This document shows positions 585 to 14,431 of a stretch of 64,000 nucleotides of DNA, in pieces (position 1 is the stretch's first letter; every line of letters begins with the position of its first letter). The stretch comes from an uncultured Gammaproteobacteria bacterium (lineage in GTDB: Bacteria > Patescibacteriota > Patescibacteriia > UBA9934). The notes below the pieces were generated by a model. That model was not told the origin of the DNA. It made no database searches and was given only the letters and a program-made list of their open reading frames with translations. A program made the translations under genes and the position numbers. Location: contig CAZTKG010000002.1 of assembly GCA_964613815.1 (NCBI GenBank), forward strand, positions 23,737 to 87,736, given 5' to 3'.

Positions 585-953
585 ATGAGAGTTCTTGGCG
601 TTGACTATGGGACGAAGAAGACCGGTCTTGCTATTGGGGATGACGAGAGTCGGGTTGCGATGCCTTTTGGGGTTGTGTACGGGCTTGATGAGATTGCGGG
701 GGTTGTGGAGCGAGAGGGGGTTGATAAGGTTGTAGTGGGGATGCCGGTGAGTGATGTTGATACGGCTCAAGCTGATGTTGTGAGGGCGTTTATTGAGGAT
801 TTGAAGGTTGTGGTGAAGGTGGATATTGATACGGTGGATGAGCGGTACACGACGAAGGCGGCGCAGCAGCTTCAGGAGGAGCAGGGGTCTGGTGTGGCTG
901 AGGATGCGCTTGCTGCGATGATTTTACTTCAGGCGTATTTTGATACGGATTGA
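585..953 (+). CDS. ruvX: putative pre-16S rRNA nuclease / Holliday junction resolvase-like YqgF (RuvX)
   Basis: N-terminal MRVLGVDYGTKKTGLAIGD is the typical RuvX/YqgF signature. ~123 aa. A 567 start is also possible. Confidence 0.85.
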   Translation: MRVLGVDYGTKKTGLAIGDDESRVAMPFGVVYGLDEIAGVVEREGVDKVVVGMPVSDVDTAQADVVRAFIEDLKVVVKVDIDTVDERYTTKAAQQLQEEQGSGVAEDALAAMILLQAYFDTD

Positions 954-1726
954 TGGCATGGTCTACATTGAAAGTTCGAGGAGTGATTTTGGCCTCATTC
1001 GCTGTTCGTGAGGCTGATCGGATGTATTATGCATATACGCGTGAGCTGGGAAGGCTGACGTTTTTTGGTCGGAGTGCGCGGAAGGGGTCGGCGAAATTGG
1101 CGCCGCATTTGGAGGGGTTTAGTGAGATTGATCTTGAGGTGGTGCGAGGGAAGAGGAGTTTTACCGTGATTCAGGCGGATCGGGTGCGTCGATTTCGGGG
1201 GATCGAAGGGGATGCGGAGCGTCGGGTATTAGTGGGAAGTTCGTTTTTGATGATGCAGCGGCAGCTTCGGGATATGGATGTGGATGTGGTGATGTATGAG
1301 GGTCTTTTACAATGGATGGGGTTTTTGGATGTAGCGGAAAGGTTTGGGTCGACTCGGAAGATGTTTTTGCTGGGATCGTTTTTGCTTCGGCTTTTGGGGT
1401 GGCTTGGGTATGAGGTGGTGCTTGATGTTTGCGTGGGGTGTCGAGGAGGCGCTCCGCGTGAAGGGGTGCGATGGCATGGGCCGAAAGGGGGACTTGTTTG
1501 TAAGGGGTGTTTTGAGGAGGCGCCTCGGGAGTGGTTTGCGGCGCGGGTGATTGATGGGGATGTGGTGAAATTTTTGCGGTTTGCTCGGGGGGCACAGTGG
1601 GAGGATTTGATGCGTGTGGAGCTTCGGGGGGATGTTGTGCGGGCGTTTTGTGGGGTAGTGCATGATTTGTGTGTGTATCATTTTCCTGTGCGGGTGGATG
1701 TGCCTTTTTGGGAGGGGGTGGTTTGA
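950..1726 (+). CDS. recO: DNA repair protein RecO
   Basis: N-terminal OB-fold-like region plus a C-terminal Cys4 zinc finger (CVGCRGG...CKGC). The size and architecture fit RecO, and the start overlaps the ruvX stop. Confidence 0.8.
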   Translation: MMAWSTLKVRGVILASFAVREADRMYYAYTRELGRLTFFGRSARKGSAKLAPHLEGFSEIDLEVVRGKRSFTVIQADRVRRFRGIEGDAERRVLVGSSFLMMQRQLRDMDVDVVMYEGLLQWMGFLDVAERFGSTRKMFLLGSFLLRLLGWLGYEVVLDVCVGCRGGAPREGVRWHGPKGGLVCKGCFEEAPREWFAARVIDGDVVKFLRFARGAQWEDLMRVELRGDVVRAFCGVVHDLCVYHFPVRVDVPFWEGVV

Positions 1727-1769
1727 GTTTGTTCACGGTGATTGGTTTTTTAGTGTATACTTTTGATGT

Positions 1770-4700
1770 ATGAGTAAGCCTTATGATCGTCAGAAGAGTC
1801 GTTTATTTGCTCGATCGGAGATCGAGAGAGGTATTCTTGATAGGCGAGATGAGCGACATGATGAGTTTTTGGAGGCTAAAGGCATGACGGAGAAGGAGTT
1901 GCAAGATGAGCGGGTTCGACAGGATTGGTATTCTGGGATTGGTATCCATCTTCCTAATATTTCTCGGGATGAGCGATGGGGTCTTTCTGATGAAGTAGAT
2001 CATGTTTTTTCGTTAAGCGGCAATGGAGCGGAAGAGTTTATTCATCAAGCTTTGCGTGATCGTGACCATGAGTTAGCTTCTTGTATCGCTGTCCAGGTTT
2101 CGAATGTACGTATTCCAATGGGTTTGTATCGTCTTGGTTTGAGGTCGACCTTTTCGGATATAAAGGTTTTGGATGGGTACGTCCGGCAAGAGTATTCAAA
2201 GCAAGATTTGAAGGATGGCGCTGAGGGTTTTCAGGATTTGTCATTAAAAGCTCGCGGGGATGAGATGGCTACAATTTTTGCTAAATGGTTTTCTGAACGG
2301 ATGTATTCTGTTGATTTGCATGATAAGGCATTGGCCTACGAAAGGGGTTCACATGTCGTAGATTTGAAGTCCCATAACCGGAATTTTTTGCGTCGTGCAT
2401 TGCGGGATCAGGACGCTTCTTCTTGTGATTTTTTTTGTCAGACTGTTTTGTTTGAGATGCCCGTTCAAGTTCGAGAAGATTTTTTTAAATTTTCCATGGA
2501 TGCGGAGATTGCTTTACGGCTCTTTAGTTCCCCCGCGCTTACTCAGCGATTATTTGATGGGGGAGATGTTCGAAGTGTATTAAAACGTGCTTTTGTTGAG
2601 AGGGTTGAGGATTGGAGATTTGCTGATGAGGAGGGGGGGCAGTTAGGTGATGCGGAAAAAGCTTTTTTGTCTACTTTGGATGAAGATGACTTAATAAACT
2701 CGCCGAGCTTTATTAAAAGCATTTTAGATAGCGGGCTTTTTGCGGGGGAGGAGGAGTTCTTGACATTTTTTGATTTTGATTCATCGTTTTTCCGTCGTGT
2801 TGAAGGGGGTTTGTTTCATGATGATATCTCGGTAATTGATAGGATTCGGCTTGCGCGAATGTTGCCTAGTTTAAATTGGATGGGTATCTCCGCTGTTTTG
2901 GAGGAGGCAGGTATTGCGGTTGCAGATCGGATCCCTGAAGAACAACTTGAATATTTACAACGTGTCGTTTCTTTTGGGCAGAATGTTGATCGAGAGATTT
3001 TTTTGGCGAGAAGTGAGTTTAGCATTAGTCCGTTTCAAGCTGAAGTTTTGAAGAGCGATTTCCCCGCAGCTTTTTTGCGGGATGGTCGTGGGAGACTTGA
3101 TTATGATCTTATCGCGGATCACTTGAGATTTGATGTGAGTCATTATGGTAGGGTTGAGGATTTGTCGATGGAGGATGAAGAGGGGGAGGTTTACGAATCT
3201 GATAATCAAATTTGGTTTGCGCGCATGAGAGAATTGTTTGGTGCTGAGATTGCGATTAAGTATGGTAATCGTCTTGGGCTTTCTGTGCATGATGCTTATT
3301 TTGCCGTTGATTCCATCATTGCTTTACAGGCACTCAGTGGTGAAACTCCAGATCGATTTGGGCAGAATATTTTGTTGCAAGTTGCAAAAGATGGGCAGGT
3401 TTATCGGTCGGGATTTGCACAGCATGAATTAAATGCTATCTCGCAGTTACTTGAGGGGAGGGACTTGAATCAGCTATTGGAGCAGGCCAAGGCTTTTTCT
3501 GCAATTGATGTTTTACAAACATGGGTTCGTGGCGTTGAGCGTGATCCATCGCGTCCGTTTTCTAGTTGGAAGGGGCTCCGGAACTATGCATCCATGGTTC
3601 GTTTGCTTGATCGGTCGGATTTTTTAACCGAGCTGCAGCATGAGACCGATCCTCGAAAACGTGTTTATTTTGAACGATTGATTTTGCATGAAAACGTTGA
3701 TACTGGAAAGGTTTTGATGTTTCGAGAAGATCCGGCTGCATTTTTGGATATTGATGATGGTCATACGGATGCCGAGGTGAATAAGGTTAAAAAGCCGTCA
3801 AATTATCTTTCGTTGCCGTTTTTGGGTCTTGATGGCAAGGATATGCGAGATGCGCTCATTGGGGGTTCTCTTGATAAGATTCAGACGTTACCTCCGATGG
3901 AGAGGGAGTATAGGCTTTATGATTCGCCTGAGAATGATCCGAGCATTCCTCGTGTTTTGCATCGGTTTATACAGGAAGCTGTTGGTAAGCGACGATTTGG
4001 TATACCGGGAAAGGCTAAGCATCCCGGGAAGGTATTTTCTCGTATTCAGCGATGGTGTAAGAGGGAGGGGGTTCGATGGAGGAATGTTTGGCAGGATCCT
4101 GTTGGATTGATGCAGCTTTCTCATGAGCAGCGCGAGGCGCTAGAGGAGATTGTTTTTGATGATGACATTGGCTTGTTGCGGCCAAATGGGGAGGTCTACC
4201 GGATGAAGCTTGGAGCGAAGAGTGATCCTGAAATGGTCATCGCAGGTAACGATACGGCAAGTTGCATGCCTTTTGGGTCAGGTAAGAATAATGTATACAT
4301 GTTTAATCCCAATTGTGCTCAAATCGTGCTTGAGCGAAAGAATGCGGAAGGGGAGTGGCGTACTGTGGCTCAATCTGTTGTCAATATTGATATGGAGACC
4401 GAGATGGATGTTCCTGCGATATTGGGTGCGTATAAACGTCAGGGGCATATTAATGATGTTGTTGCGGCGACGGATTTTGGGAATAGAGAGGTGATTGCAT
4501 GCGACAATATTGAGGTGGCGAAAAATGCGCAAGGGAAGGCTTCGACATTCATTTCTGAAGCCTATCGGCGTTTTATGACGGATTATTTGGATGTGCATGC
4601 GGAGGGTCTTGAGGTTGATGCGACTCGGGTTGTTGTTGGGAAGGGGTATACGCCTGCTGCACTTGGTTTTGATCAGATTGATAATCATTTTATTCCGCAG

Positions 4701-8493: not shown

Positions 8494-9465
8494 ATGTTTT
8501 TGAAAGTTATTGGACAAATTGTGATGACGGGGGTGTTTGCCTCGGCGTTTCCGATGAATGCTGCGGTGTATGAGCATCAACTTGATGAGACGCTTTTGGA
8601 TCCTGGCGTGGTTTCTGCGGCTGAGCTTGCGAGTTTTGATGTGCAACTTCCTCTTGCTGATGAGCGCGAGATTCCTCGGCCGATGAAGGTGGATTTGGAT
8701 TCGCATGGGATTGTGACGACGGCGAAGAGTGCGCTTGTGCAGGATGTGCGGAGTGGGGCGGTGTTGTTTTCGAAGAATGCGTATGATGTGCGGTCGATTG
8801 GATCTGTAACGAAGTTGATGACGGCGATCGTGCTCTTACGTCAGGAAGTGGATTTGGATGCGTATGTGACGGTTGTTGGGGATGATTTTGTGTATGGGGG
8901 GCGGACGTATGTCGCGTTTGATGATGCGCTCCGGCTTGAGGATGTGTTTGCGGCTTCTGTGGTTGGGTCGGATAATACGGCGACGAGAGCTTTGGCGCGG
9001 CTTAGTGGACTTGAATATGAGGCGTTTATTGCGGAGATGAATGTGGTTGCTCGTGAGCTTGGAATGGATTCTTCCGTTTTTGTCGATCCGACAGGGATTG
9101 ATGCGGGGAATGTTTCTACGGTGTTTGATTTGACGCTTCTTTTGGAGGAAGCGGATGAATATGAGGCTTTGCGTGAATATATGAGGGCGCGAAATGTGAC
9201 GATCGTGCACTCATCTGGAATTTCTAGTTATATTGAGAGTACGAATCAGGTTTTGGAGTCGTTTTTGCATGAGGGGGAGTATGAAATTGTTGCTGGGAAA
9301 ACGGGGTACTTGCCTCAGGCTGGATATGTTTTGGCGACGACGGTTGATCGAGATGGGGATGATGTTCATGTGATCGTGCTTGGTGCGGATTCGAAGGATG
9401 ATCGGATGCATGAGGTGATTGGGCTTGCAGCTTGGGCTTATAAGGTATTTGAATGGCCAAATTAA
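8494..9465 (+). CDS. D-alanyl-D-alanine carboxypeptidase (peptidase S11, PBP5/6-like)
   Basis: SxxK active-site motif (SVTKLMT) and an SGN-like motif (SDNTAT), with an N-terminal signal-like segment. Confidence 0.8.
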   Translation: MFLKVIGQIVMTGVFASAFPMNAAVYEHQLDETLLDPGVVSAAELASFDVQLPLADEREIPRPMKVDLDSHGIVTTAKSALVQDVRSGAVLFSKNAYDVRSIGSVTKLMTAIVLLRQEVDLDAYVTVVGDDFVYGGRTYVAFDDALRLEDVFAASVVGSDNTATRALARLSGLEYEAFIAEMNVVARELGMDSSVFVDPTGIDAGNVSTVFDLTLLLEEADEYEALREYMRARNVTIVHSSGISSYIESTNQVLESFLHEGEYEIVAGKTGYLPQAGYVLATTVDRDGDDVHVIVLGADSKDDRMHEVIGLAAWAYKVFEWPN

Positions 9466-11152: not shown

Positions 11153-11196
11153 CCTTGATACAAAAGTGGTCCGTACGGACCACTTTTGTATCAAGG
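11153..11196. repeat. 44-bp perfect palindrome, copy 1 (ccttgatacaaaagtggtccgtacggaccacttttgtatcaagg)
   Basis: Exact self-complementarity over 44 bp; a second copy lies at 11767-11810. Confidence 0.9.
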
Positions 11197-11275
11197 AGAA
11201 GGTTGTTTGAAATGATGTTTTTTGTGGCCTACGGTTGGTTTTATAACAAAAACACATCGTTACACGATGCGCTTT

Positions 11276-11352
11276 TGGTGGCTGGAGTGGGGCTCGAACC
11301 CACGACCTAAGGCTTATGAGTCCTTCGCTCTAACCAACTGAGCTACCCAGCC
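11276..11352 (-). tRNA. tRNA-Met (anticodon CAU; could alternatively be tRNA-Ile2/lysidine type)
   Basis: Cloverleaf GGCTGGG-TA-GCTC..GAGC-..CTCATAA..-GTGGGTTCGAGCCCCAC-TCCAGCC-A-CCA, with CCA encoded. Confidence 0.85.
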
Positions 11353-11468
11353 AGGTTTGATTTCTGCTCGATCGTATCAGTATTTTTGTGTGTCGACAAG
11401 ATGTCTAGGTTGTTGCCCGTTCTTTGCTCTATAGGATCGAGCTACGAAGGGCACTCCTCTTCGAGGAG

Positions 11469-11606
11469 TGGTGGCCAGAGAGGGGAGTGTTTGCTGCGCA
11501 AACGGAGTATCTGCGTCGTTCGGGTGTATTCAAGCGAGCTTGAATACACCGCTCTCTATCCTCGATACAGCGAACCCGGGTGAGGGTTCTCACCCCTCTC
11601 TGGCCA
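11469..11606 (-). ncRNA. tRNA-Leu 3'-end-derived inverted-repeat element (structured RNA or MITE-like)
   Basis: 18 nt identical to the tRNA-Leu 3' end (..CCCCTCTCTGGCCACCA on the - strand), with a 14-bp inverted copy 106 nt away. The interior holds three near-perfect hairpins. It lies between tRNA-Leu and tRNA-Met on the same strand. Confidence 0.4.
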
Positions 11607-11625
11607 TCAAATAAAAACATTCTTG

Positions 11626-11712
11626 TGGTGGCCAGAGAGGGGATCGAACCCTCACGGTATTGCTACCACGGGATTTTGAGTCCCGCGCGTCTACCAGTTC
11701 CGCCATCTGGCC
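11626..11712 (-). tRNA. tRNA-Leu (anticodon CAA), type II with a long variable arm
   Basis: GGCCAGATGGCGGAACTGGTAGACGCG..CTCAAAA..TGGTAGCAATACCGT..GGGTTCGATCCCCTCTCTGGCCACCA. 87 nt, with CCA encoded. Confidence 0.9.
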
Positions 11713-11766
11713 GTGCGCAGAGTGTATGAAAAAATGGTCGGTTTGTCAATGGATATTTGTTACTCT

Positions 11767-11810
11767 GCTTGATACAAAAGTGGTCCGTACGGACCACTTT
11801 TGTATCAAGG
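11767..11810. repeat. 44-bp palindrome, copy 2 (43/44 identical to copy 1)
   Basis: tgcttgatacaaaagtggtccgtacggaccacttttgtatcaagg. Followed by AGG, giving AAGGAG. Confidence 0.9.
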
Positions 11811-11838
11811 AGGCGGGGGGAAGGTTTTGTGAGGGGTG

Positions 11839-13020: not shown

Positions 13021-13093
13021 ATTTGTTGACAAAAATGGGGTGAAAATGTATATTGCGCCTGCGGGGTAGAGCAGTCTGGTAGCTCGTTGGGCT

Positions 13094-13733
13094 CGACCCG
13101 AAATTAGTTTGAACTTTTCATGACAAAGTTAAAAGGTGATATTGCGGAGCAAGCGGCGATCCTTCATGCTTTGAAACGAGGTTGGGAAGTGTTGATTCCA
13201 AACGGTGATCGACTTTCGTATGATCTTGTTTTCGATGTTCATGGTTCGCTTGTCAAAATTCAGGTCAAGTCTTCTTGGTTTGACCAGAACCGGAAAAATC
13301 ATGTTGTTGATTCTCGTAGAACTAAGACGAATCGTCGTATTATGAAGCGGGAATTGTATCAATTTGGTGATTTCGATTTTGCTCTCGTATATGTCGATTC
13401 TCTCGATATTTTTTATGTATTTCCTTTTGAAGAATTTGTCAGCTACAAAAGCGAGATTCACTTGGTAGAATCTGATAAACGTCAGAGAAAGCCGCGTTCT
13501 GCAGCGTTTCGTGATTCTTGGAACTTAATTTCATTATGGGCTGCGTAGTGCGAAAGCGTTACGTGACTCCTGTCAAATTCGGGGAAGCCTTTTGCAATGG
13601 TAATCCCGAGCCAAGCCCGCAAGGGAAGGTGTAGAGACTTGATGGCAGGCACCCTAACGTTTAGTCGAGGGTGAAGGTAAAGTCCAGACCACAAATTCAC
13701 ATTTGTGAAGCAGTTAAAGCTGTAGTTGGTATG
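13094..13733 (+). other. group I intron (self-splicing type) inside tRNA-fMet
   Basis: Core-like R and S elements (GUAGAGACUUGAUGG and AAGGUAAAGUCCAGACC, matching the P7 strands), a terminal G, a U at the exon -1 position, and an ORF in a 5' peripheral loop. Confidence 0.65.
13120..13548 (+). CDS. intron-encoded putative homing endonuclease, PD-(D/E)xK / Hjc-like fold (I-Ssp6803I-type)
   Basis: 142 aa. KGDIAEQAAILHALKRGWEV...YDLVFDVHGSLVKIQVKSS parallels the Hjc/Vsr-type E...D...(E/Q)VK motif. It lies wholly inside the tRNA-fMet intron. Confidence 0.55.
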   Translation: MTKLKGDIAEQAAILHALKRGWEVLIPNGDRLSYDLVFDVHGSLVKIQVKSSWFDQNRKNHVVDSRRTKTNRRIMKRELYQFGDFDFALVYVDSLDIFYVFPFEEFVSYKSEIHLVESDKRQRKPRSAAFRDSWNLISLWAA

Positions 13734-13805
13734 CATAACCCAAAGGTCACTGGTTCAAATCCAGTCCCCGCAACCAAAAGATCTTCTGCATGGCAGGGGA
13801 TTTTT

Positions 13806-13840: not shown

Positions 13841-14431
13841 TGGCATGAGGGTGCTGGCGATGATTGTGGCCGCGTGACCTCCGATGTGGAGGGTTTTTGG
13901 TCTTGCCTTTCGTGGGAGGCGGGAATGTTCGATGGAAGTGATGGTGGTTTCGGCTTCGTCTGCGAGTGATTCGTGGAGGCGTGTGCGTAGGATGCGTTTT
14001 GCCTCTTTACGTGTGTAGCAGATGTAGACGACGGGATGGCCATCTGGGGTGAGGAAGGCGATGGTGAAGATTGCGGGAGGCTGTTGGCTTTCGGGGTTGA
14101 TGGTTACATCTGCGTAGAGGATGCATGGGGAGGTTCTTGGAAGGGGGCGCTGGATGGCCGTTCCTTCAATCATTGAGGCGAGCCAGAAGGCGGTGAAGCC
14201 TTGGATGTTGAGTTTGGTGGATGAGGCGTTTTCCGGGAGGCTTGAGTTGTCTACTTGGTTGAGACACTGTTTGATTCTTTTGGAATCGACGTGCCTTTCG
14301 ATGAAGTCTCGTGTTTGTCGTTTTGAATGACAGACGGTGATGCAGGGGGTTCTTCCGATGGCGCCGATGATGAGGACGTTGGGGGTTGTGGGGGACGGTG
14401 CTGTTGGGAGGGAGATGTAGGAGATTCTCAC
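13835..14431 (-). CDS. hypothetical protein (198 aa)
   Basis: GTG start at 14431 preceded by AAGGA, with a -35/-10 promoter upstream (TTGACA..AATATA). No recognisable family. Confidence 0.55.
   Translation of the reverse strand: MRISYISLPTAPSPTTPNVLIIGAIGRTPCITVCHSKRQTRDFIERHVDSKRIKQCLNQVDNSSLPENASSTKLNIQGFTAFWLASMIEGTAIQRPLPRTSPCILYADVTINPESQQPPAIFTIAFLTPDGHPVVYICYTRKEAKRILRTRLHESLADEAETTITSIEHSRLPRKARPKTLHIGGHAATIIASTLMPR

Follow-up and report, generated by a model that had tools for sequence, protein, structure and literature searches.

The DNA analysed here, called the window below, is a stretch of 64,000 nt from contig CAZTKG010000002.1 (assembly GCA_964613815.1) of an uncultured marine bacterium, and the element of concern begins 16 nt past the end of a tRNA-Leu(CAA) gene, on the same strand. 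The element is real and strongly structured, and in its design it is like the poorly understood RtT kind of tRNA-operon unit (Rfam RF00391, annotated as rttR in Escherichia coli), lying at the tRNA-Leu of a bacterium of the Candidate Phyla Radiation (CPR). The favoured explanation, to which a probability of about 0.5 is assigned, is that it is a single RtT-type spacer unit of a tRNA operon, which yields a by-product RNA when the tRNA transcript is processed. The host was assigned as an uncultured CPR/Patescibacteria bacterium because the proteins closest to the aspartyl-tRNA synthetase of the window, among those with a named source, came from Candidatus Uhrbacteria, the Parcubacteria group and the Patescibacteria group (66-70% identity). 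The source scaffold is 579 kb long (ENA ERZ23498905, SUTE22-1_SAMN10231923 scaffold_2), and the copy-number counts given below cover the 64-kb window. Independent ENA, JGI and Logan assemblies of other samples (L001, L002, L203, L204) contain the element region with 100% identity, and one further assembly (L207) differed in it by a single nucleotide polymorphism (SNP). Since the region matches across independent assemblies, the element is not an assembly artefact.

Read on the tRNA strand, which is the minus strand of the window, the layout of the element is GGCCAGAGAGGGG-UGAGAA-CCCUCAC, then GGGUUCG, a core of about 85 nt and the last 18-19 nt of tRNA-Leu (Table 1). A first-pass annotation had described an 18-nt duplication of the tRNA-Leu end 157 bp from the gene and a 14-bp inverted copy, and both proved to be longer than described. 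The perfect direct repeat is the 19-mer GTGGTGGCCAGAGAGGGGA, found at 11468-11486 and 11625-11643 with 19/19 identity, 157 bp from start to start and with a gap of 138 bp between the two copies. The inverted arms (11469-11485 and 11593-11609) are 17 nt long, 16/17 (94%) complementary and 107 nt apart, and the inverted copy as a whole extends over the reverse complement of the entire tRNA-Leu T arm, the acceptor 3' strand and the CCA, with four mismatches in 30 nt and an alignment score of 22, compared with 6.9 +/- 1.3 in shuffled sequences. Within this copy the former T loop reads UGAGAA. The inner end of the inverted copy and the direct T-stem/T-loop fragment GGGUUCG together build hairpin H1. 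The 13-mer GGCCAGAGAGGGG occurs exactly three times in the window, each time at a tRNA-Leu or element arm site.

The minus-strand segment 11609..11469 was predicted to fold with -69.5 kcal/mol (z = -7.9), and 0/200 shuffled sequences folded equally well. Together with the three sites of the 13-mer and the score of the inverted-copy alignment, this shows that the pattern is not due to chance. In the predicted structure the two arms pair without a mismatch as a terminal helix of 13 bp (17 bp if its flanks are counted) and leave ACCA free, as had been proposed in the first-pass annotation, and four internal hairpins are enclosed. These are H1 (GAACCC/GGGUUC), the small hairpin of UAUC-GAG-GAUA type, the 12-bp hairpin and GUUUGC-GCA-GCAAAC, so that the earlier description of internal hairpins was also supported. 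The inverted copy departs from the tRNA sequence at four positions, and the element's own fold leaves every one of them unpaired.

No terminator-like site was found on the minus strand between tRNA-Leu and the downstream tRNA-Met gene. Because a sigma-70-like promoter precedes tRNA-Leu and a terminator-like hairpin follows only after tRNA-Met, the element is predicted to lie inside the tRNA-Leu/tRNA-Met transcription unit. Three readings had been offered earlier, namely a scar of integrase-mediated insertion, a miniature inverted-repeat transposable element (MITE) and a tRNA-like structured RNA co-transcribed with the tRNA operon. The last, as a predicted RNA, fits best, by its operon position and by its RtT/rttR build. 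That annotation missed the likeness to RtT, how far the inverted T arm extends, and the alternative pairing of this arm with the tRNA that is described below.

Table 1 Features of the tRNA-Leu/tRNA-Met operon and the element in the window, with units and long-stem structures on other contigs (positions refer to the sequence named in the first column)
Sequence	Feature	Position	Strand	Basis
Window	Sigma-70-like promoter (TTGACA, 17 nt, TACACT), 10/12 consensus matches, 9 nt upstream of the tRNA-Leu 5' end	11721-11749	minus	
Window	tRNA-Leu(CAA) gene, CCA encoded; source sequence X is its last 30 nt	11626-11712	minus	ARAGORN, Rfam (58.1 bits)
Window	Direct-repeat copy 1 (tRNA-Leu 3' end plus one base)	11625-11643	minus	Repeat search
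Window	AU-rich 16-nt single-stranded linker CAAGAAUGUUUUUAUU	11610-11625	minus	Sequence; unpaired in predicted fold
Window	Inverted copy X' of the last 30 nt of tRNA-Leu, 26/30	11580-11609	minus	Repeat search and alignment
Window	5' arm of terminal stem, within X'	11593-11609	minus	Repeat search
Window	Hairpin H1, GAACCC-UCACCC-GGGUUC	11572-11589	minus	Predicted fold, alignment
Window	Core, not tRNA-derived, ~85 nt	11487-11571	minus	Repeat search, fold
Window	Small hairpin in core, UAUC-GAG-GAUA type	11554-11570	minus	Fold
Window	12-bp hairpin in core, GGUGUAUUCAAG/CUUGAAUACACC	11523-11550	minus	Repeat search, fold
Window	Core segment CGAACGACGCAGAUACUCC		minus	
Window	GUUUGC-GCA-GCAAAC hairpin in core	11489-11503	minus	Fold
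Window	Direct-repeat copy 2: last 18 nt of tRNA-Leu (T loop to CCA) plus one base; 3' arm	11468-11486	minus	100% identity
Window	ACCA end of direct-repeat copy 2	11469-11472	minus	
Window	7-bp hairpin ACUCCUC-GAA-GAGGAGU, beginning at the last A of the CCA copy	11453-11469	minus	Sequence, folds
Window	Remaining tRNA-Leu/tRNA-Met spacer	11353-11452	minus	
Window	12-bp inverted repeat in spacer	11366-11377 / 11431-11442	minus	Repeat search
Window	Weak promoter-like site	11379-11407	minus	
Window	tRNA-Met(CAU, elongator type), downstream operon gene	11276-11352	minus	ARAGORN, Rfam
Window	Terminator-like hairpin with T-run after tRNA-Met	11255-11269	minus	
L069	tRNA-Phe: two different units in tandem	1660-2060		
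L073	tRNA-Phe: second core type	3590-3807		
L092	tRNA-Phe: second core type	2920-3184		
L041	tRNA-Arg: core almost identical to L069 unit 1, arms matching tRNA-Arg	887-1062		
L343 (CPR relative, GCA_964569575.1)	tRNA-Met: weaker version	14022-14200		
L208	Long-stem structure after tRNA-Leu(CAA)	3021-3292		
L217	Long-stem structure after tRNA-Leu(CAA)	2560-2685		
L345	Long-stem structure after tRNA-Leu(CAA)	9106-9222		

The same build is found in the RtT units of the E. coli tyrT-tyrV operon. Such a unit opens with GGGGAAGG(A/G)UGAGAA(C/G)CUUC, in which the tRNA-Tyr T arm and part of the acceptor strand are copied in inverted orientation, with the loop AUUCGAA altered to AUGAGAA or GUGAGAA. It continues with a direct AAGGUUCGA and a hairpin core of ~67 nt, and closes with the last 19 nt of tRNA-Tyr, the terminal copy being AATCCTTCCCCCACCACCA. 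The E. coli rttR annotation is a non-coding RNA of 171 nt whose start lies 8 nt past tyrV and whose end is at the CCA copy. Both the element and the E. coli unit thus lie downstream of a tRNA, on the same strand and within its transcription unit; both close with the final ~19 nt of the upstream tRNA, CCA included, copied without a mismatch; and both have a 5' arm complementary to that terminal copy, a T arm in inverted orientation whose loop reads UGAGAA, a direct GGUUCG(A) next to it, and a multi-hairpin core. Minimum-energy folds calculated independently for the E. coli units, the window element and one Bacteroidetes unit gave the same topology. The two systems differ in the tRNA (tRNA-Leu in the window, tRNA-Tyr in E. 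coli), in the host (a CPR/Patescibacteria bacterium against an enterobacterium), in number (a single unit against 3.14 tandem copies of a 178-bp repeat in the tyrT operon) and in the terminal stem (13-17 bp against 8-10 bp), and their cores cannot be aligned. It has been reported that RtT RNAs are expressed in Klebsiella (PMC4147364), and rtT has been described as a processing product of the tyrT operon whose mode of action is unknown (bioRxiv 10.1101/2024.07.17.603846). A hypothetical "protamine-like" open reading frame, tpr, lies inside E. coli rttR. In the window a 63-aa Arg-rich reading frame (11620..11429, minus strand) has the same frame relative to the (A/G)UGAGAA loop and the same position as tpr; it was rejected as a gene, its only matches being spurious ones to repetitive proteins.

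A covariance model built solely from four E. coli RtT copies (R1), for which a short calibration makes all E-values rough, matched the element at full length (11469-11606, minus strand) with 22.7 bits, mostly contributed by the tRNA-derived modules, and with rough E-values of 0.0017 in a search of 98 kb and 0.012 in one of 697 kb. In 1.27 Mb of assorted bacterial DNA with ~85 tRNA genes the element ranked first with this model, the best noise match reaching 17.0 bits and tRNA genes scoring below 9 bits. Among the Rfam families, RtT gave the best match covering the element on the tRNA strand, with model positions 1-130 aligned to 11469-11614 and E-values of 2.7 (1.2-kb search) and 0.43 (191-nt search).

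Units of this design were also found beside other tRNAs. A metagenome scan for CCCCTCTCTGGCCACCA brought up mainly chance matches and tRNA-Phe genes of gut Bacteroidetes, whose 3' end is the same, and among the matches listed were four contigs, L041, L069, L073 and L092, with repeat-bearing units. These rumen and gut Bacteroidetes loci hold one to three tandem units each, of two unrelated core types, and one core type occurs beside two different tRNAs, tRNA-Arg in L041 and tRNA-Phe in L069. In L343, the last 19 nt of an elongator tRNA-Met are duplicated ~160 nt downstream together with a 32-nt terminator, and a 10-nt inverted T-loop fragment, GGAGTTGAAC, lies between the tRNA-Met and its duplicated end. 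Altogether eight units were compared, from E. coli (tRNA-Tyr), Bacteroidetes (tRNA-Phe and tRNA-Arg), L343 (tRNA-Met) and the window (tRNA-Leu). All eight carry an inverted copy of their own tRNA 3' region that is better than those of 498-500 of 500 shuffled sequences, every unit ends in the last 16-19 nt of its tRNA, and in all units except that of L343 a direct T-stem/T-loop fragment comes after the inverted copy, at a distance of a few nt. Neither the inverted copy, the fragment nor the end copy was found in five control tRNAs without a downstream repeat. The change from UC to GA in the inverted T loop is common to the window, E. coli and L041, and the second Bacteroidetes type has the mirror change (GA to UC). 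No integrase was found near the Bacteroidetes arrays, whose neighbours encode FtsK and ankyrin-repeat proteins, and the Rfam RtT model did not detect the Bacteroidetes units.

Under the favoured explanation, the element would have arisen by local re-copying of the tRNA 3' end in the order direct-inverted-direct, probably through template switching at the T-arm quasi-palindrome, and no import by an integrase or a transposase would have been involved. In tandem-inversion duplications generally, a direct-inverted-direct order points to template switching. The unit would then be transcribed from the tRNA-Leu promoter as part of a tRNA-Leu/spacer/tRNA-Met precursor, in which the two arms would close into the terminal helix and, with the free ACCA, mimic the 12-bp acceptor/T-arm stack of a tRNA. 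Because of this mimicry, the enzymes that finish tRNA-Leu may also release the spacer. Cutting would be done by an endonuclease in the AU-rich linker, by RNase P 5' of G11605 at the helix base, or by both, and the 3' end would be trimmed back to CCA as for tRNA-Leu, since the last 19 nt are identical. A stable RNA of ~137-157 nt would be released and both flanking tRNAs would be freed. Cleavage, trimming and release are steps that we infer by analogy with rttR. When the whole precursor is folded to minimum energy, the inverted arm takes the 3' half of tRNA-Leu as its partner, and the distal copy takes the 5' acceptor strand of the tRNA. As the inverted arm can pair with the tRNA-Leu 3' half in this model, the second direct copy may act as a decoy that leaves the tRNA free. 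A trans-acting function of the released RNA is possible; nothing in the analysis supports one.

Two known systems serve as further points of comparison for this route. The 3'ETS-leuZ of E. coli, a tRNA-operon spacer, is a by-product of precursor processing that can persist as an RNA and acts as a sponge of small RNAs, and it is used here as a working analogy; the element differs from it in that no seed-like conserved single strand was identified. In mascRNA/MALAT1 and in minihelix substrates of RNase P, a helix of ~12-13 bp with NCCA is the handle for tRNA-end enzymes, and the element differs from these in having no cloverleaf.

Several results weigh against an RtT-type unit. The Rfam RtT match scored 17.1 bits and missed the gathering score of 45. 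When searched alone, the core of the element scored at most 4.4 bits, and its global alignment to the E. coli and Bacteroidetes cores was not significant (best z = 1.86, with 51/1000 dinucleotide shuffles scoring as well). A homology of cores based on the motifs AGAGAGCG, GCGCAGC and CGAAC was rejected, as these were not significant against shuffled sequences. Because the cores fail to align, common descent with RtT is unproven and the likeness resides in the tRNA-derived modules; by its sequence, the element is RtT-like in design and is not filed as a member of RF00391. Tandem repetition is absent, one unit being present in the window. The nearest available relatives have no homologue of the element, and the SNP of L207 (11542 G>T), one of only three over 3.4 kb between the two populations of the organism, replaces a G-C pair in the 12-bp hairpin by a mismatch. 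Finally, the Bacteroidetes units sit behind intrinsic terminators, which are duplicated between units, so the design needs no co-transcription and may be purely a product of events at the DNA level.

These points also bear on the view that the element is a neutral accident. A template switch at the T-arm quasi-palindrome could have produced a sequence that is transcribed only through its place in the operon, with an RNA that is degraded and has no role even in processing. The occurrence of the element in one species, its absence from all sampled relatives, the pair-breaking SNP, the Bacteroidetes equivalents behind terminators and the differences of core among lineages would all be expected from such an event. 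However, an accident of this kind does not account well for the perfect stems (13 bp, 12 bp and two of 6 bp), for the confinement of the four inverted-copy differences to unpaired positions, for the same UC-to-GA change of the T loop in the window, E. coli and L041, or for the accumulation of the E. coli and Klebsiella RtT as RNAs, and the neutral origin is regarded as unlikely, though its probability is not negligible. A scar of insertion at the tRNA-Leu 3' end, with the 19-nt repeats as attL and attR of an island that was almost wholly deleted and with an attP that would contain TCCCCTCTCTGGCCACCA, is judged improbable. Attachment (att) sites of tyrosine integrases are classically recognised by a directly repeated tRNA 3' segment starting in the T loop, and the "empty" tRNA-Leu/tRNA-Met junction of 11-16 nt in the relatives L211 and L343 could be the unoccupied state. 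Against such a scar, only 138 bp lie between the repeats, neither an integrase nor cargo was found within +/-6 kb (Pfam), the 18-mer had 0 matches in 2.9 million viral contigs, and the element had no match in phage or plasmid records. Moreover, an att duplication does not create the 30-nt inverted copy of the T arm or a T-stem fragment split from the 3' half by a core, and E. coli tyrT and the Bacteroidetes loci show this build with no integrase nearby. A scan of viral contigs for TGAGAACC-N(3-15)-GGTTCG gave 120 chance matches, none beside a tRNA.

A MITE or foldback element that landed beside tRNA-Leu by chance, or that targets tRNA ends, would share with the element its small size (~140 nt), its non-coding nature, its strong hairpin and its 17-nt terminal inverted repeats (16/17), and different long-stem elements do stand at the same place in the relatives L208, L217 and L345. 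Yet no target-site duplication was seen (the flanks are GAGGAG and AATAAA), the search for further copies that had been suggested found a single one in the window, the supposed terminal repeats are identical to the end of the adjacent tRNA gene and reach into its T arm, and the spacer elements of the relatives have no sequence in common with the element, so that a mobile origin is considered most improbable. The precursor fold in which the inverted arm takes up the tRNA-Leu 3' half raises another prospect, that of a regulatory folding switch or tRNA mimic: this pairing could block maturation or be relieved by the decoy, or an ACCA-ended RNA could titrate a tRNA-binding factor. In the consensus of sX4 (Rfam RF02223, a small RNA of Xanthomonas), a tRNA 3' end is drawn paired in the same way with a G-run that lies downstream and precedes UGAGA, and a link of rtT to the stringent response is cited in bioRxiv 10.1101/2024.07.17.603846. 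The fold is purely thermodynamic, however, and co-transcriptional folding would favour the tRNA; there is no conservation in the sampled relatives, and the sX4 match scored 31 bits against a gathering score of 70. A regulatory role of this kind is hence held to be decidedly improbable.

The recurrence of the design suggests one further interpretation, which extends across phyla. RtT-type units might be tRNA-templated cassettes made by one unrecognised mechanism, for example insertion or recombination specific to the T loop, or a synthesis that is primed or templated by tRNA 3' ends. It is motivated by unrelated cores that are framed by an inverted and a direct copy of the adjacent tRNA, by a direct copy that is always split in the T loop past UUCG(A), and by a terminal copy that always begins at T-loop position 58/59. 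The same 18-nt boundary is known from retroviral primer-binding sites and from tRF-3a fragments. Only a small probability is attached to this interpretation; if it were true, the mechanism would have left its signature in the UGAGAA/UCUCA edit that the inverted T loops share.

The match of sX4 deserves a closer description. It covers 11588-11717 on the minus strand, that is tRNA-Leu and the start of the element, with E = 2e-4, and the likeness lies in a sequence resembling a class-II tRNA, with its T-stem and acceptor 3' strand paired to the downstream G-run. Most of the score comes from the tRNA itself, sX4 is uncharacterised, and the match is taken as no more than a lead. It hints that sX4 may itself be a tRNA with an RtT-like trailer. 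Among other identities, no tRNA, tmRNA or YrlA call by ARAGORN or Rfam covered the whole element. Rfam gave no match to 5S rRNA, the signal recognition particle RNA, 6S RNA, tmRNA, Y RNA or ribozymes, except for a weak match to tmRNA_permuted (15.7 bits, gathering score 47) running from the tRNA 3' end over the linker into the 5' arm, and these identities were rejected. The plus strand, ending ...GAGGGTTCTCACCCCTCTCTGGCCATCA, was likewise rejected as a tRNA-like gene, as it had no ARAGORN or Rfam call and is antisense to the tRNA operon.

For comparison with related genomes, syntenic loci were reached via the malic enzyme, a 154-aa neighbouring protein and the aspartyl-tRNA synthetase, which gave relatives at 70-75% protein identity; no close relative was present in the GTDB representative set, where the best malic-enzyme identity was 64%. 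The presence/absence comparison that had been proposed earlier showed that the element is missing at the syntenic loci of the sampled relatives, and at this sampling it is species-specific. Past tRNA-Leu, L211 and L343 have 11-16 nt and then tRNA-Met, L344 has a plain terminator, L213 has a 20-bp hairpin overlapping the CCA end, and L208, L217 and L345 have long-stem structures of 110-140 nt directly past the CCA. None of these seven loci has a direct or inverted copy of the tRNA-Leu end. The arms of the long-stem structures are 13-18 bp, perfect or near-perfect, and L208 has a second such structure that abuts tRNA-Met. After tRNA-Leu(CAA) the position and the hairpin character of these spacers are kept and the sequence is not; the arms in L208, L217 and L345 are not tRNA-derived and have no sequence common to each other or to the window. 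A shared family of long-stem spacers in these three genomes was rejected; model R2 found no match and Rfam found no RtT there.

Some other features of the surrounding DNA were recorded. The weak promoter-like site in the spacer could, by its motif, also serve tRNA-Met. Two identical perfect palindromes of 45 nt, CTTGATACAAAAGTGGTCCGTACGGACCACTTTTGTATCAAGGAG, flank the tRNA-Leu/tRNA-Met operon (11154-11198 and 11768-11812); they have no other copies in the window, two Logan contigs end within one of them, and they look like bidirectional terminators or insulators. The GC skew of the plus strand is very strong and uniform, at about +0.3 to +0.5 across nearly all of the window, and falls only near the minus-strand tRNA operon and at 58-62 kb. 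An initiator tRNA-Met gene at 13060-13776 on the plus strand was overlooked by ARAGORN. It is interrupted between anticodon positions 34 and 35 by a group I intron of ~640 nt (Rfam RF00028, 81 bits at 13521-13707), and the relatives L208, L213, L217, L343 and L345 have an uninterrupted gene. The intron carries an open reading frame (13120-13548) for a homing endonuclease of the PD-(D/E)XK type (Pfam PF11645, E = 1e-46), a family which we take to be that of the endonuclease in the cyanobacterial tRNA-fMet intron.

Ever since it was described, rtT/RttR has stood as an orphan that arises from a tRNA operon by processing and has no known mechanism, and so far as could be traced in annotations and literature, no RtT annotation was found outside the enterobacteria. 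The same design beside tRNA-Leu in a streamlined CPR genome and beside tRNA-Phe and tRNA-Arg in Bacteroidetes offers a first comparative handle on it. The units are tailored to their own tRNA and their cores differ, and these facts suggest that conservation concerns the tRNA-derived frame and not the core. Such a frame might persist as a processing handle, or a common mechanism at the DNA level might produce it. For genome annotation there is a practical consequence as well, because tRNA 3' ends that occur in duplicate are routinely taken for att sites of genomic islands, and RtT-type units are a source of false positives for such readings. The interest of the element rests mainly on the recurrence, across phyla, of a frame that is tailored to the local tRNA.

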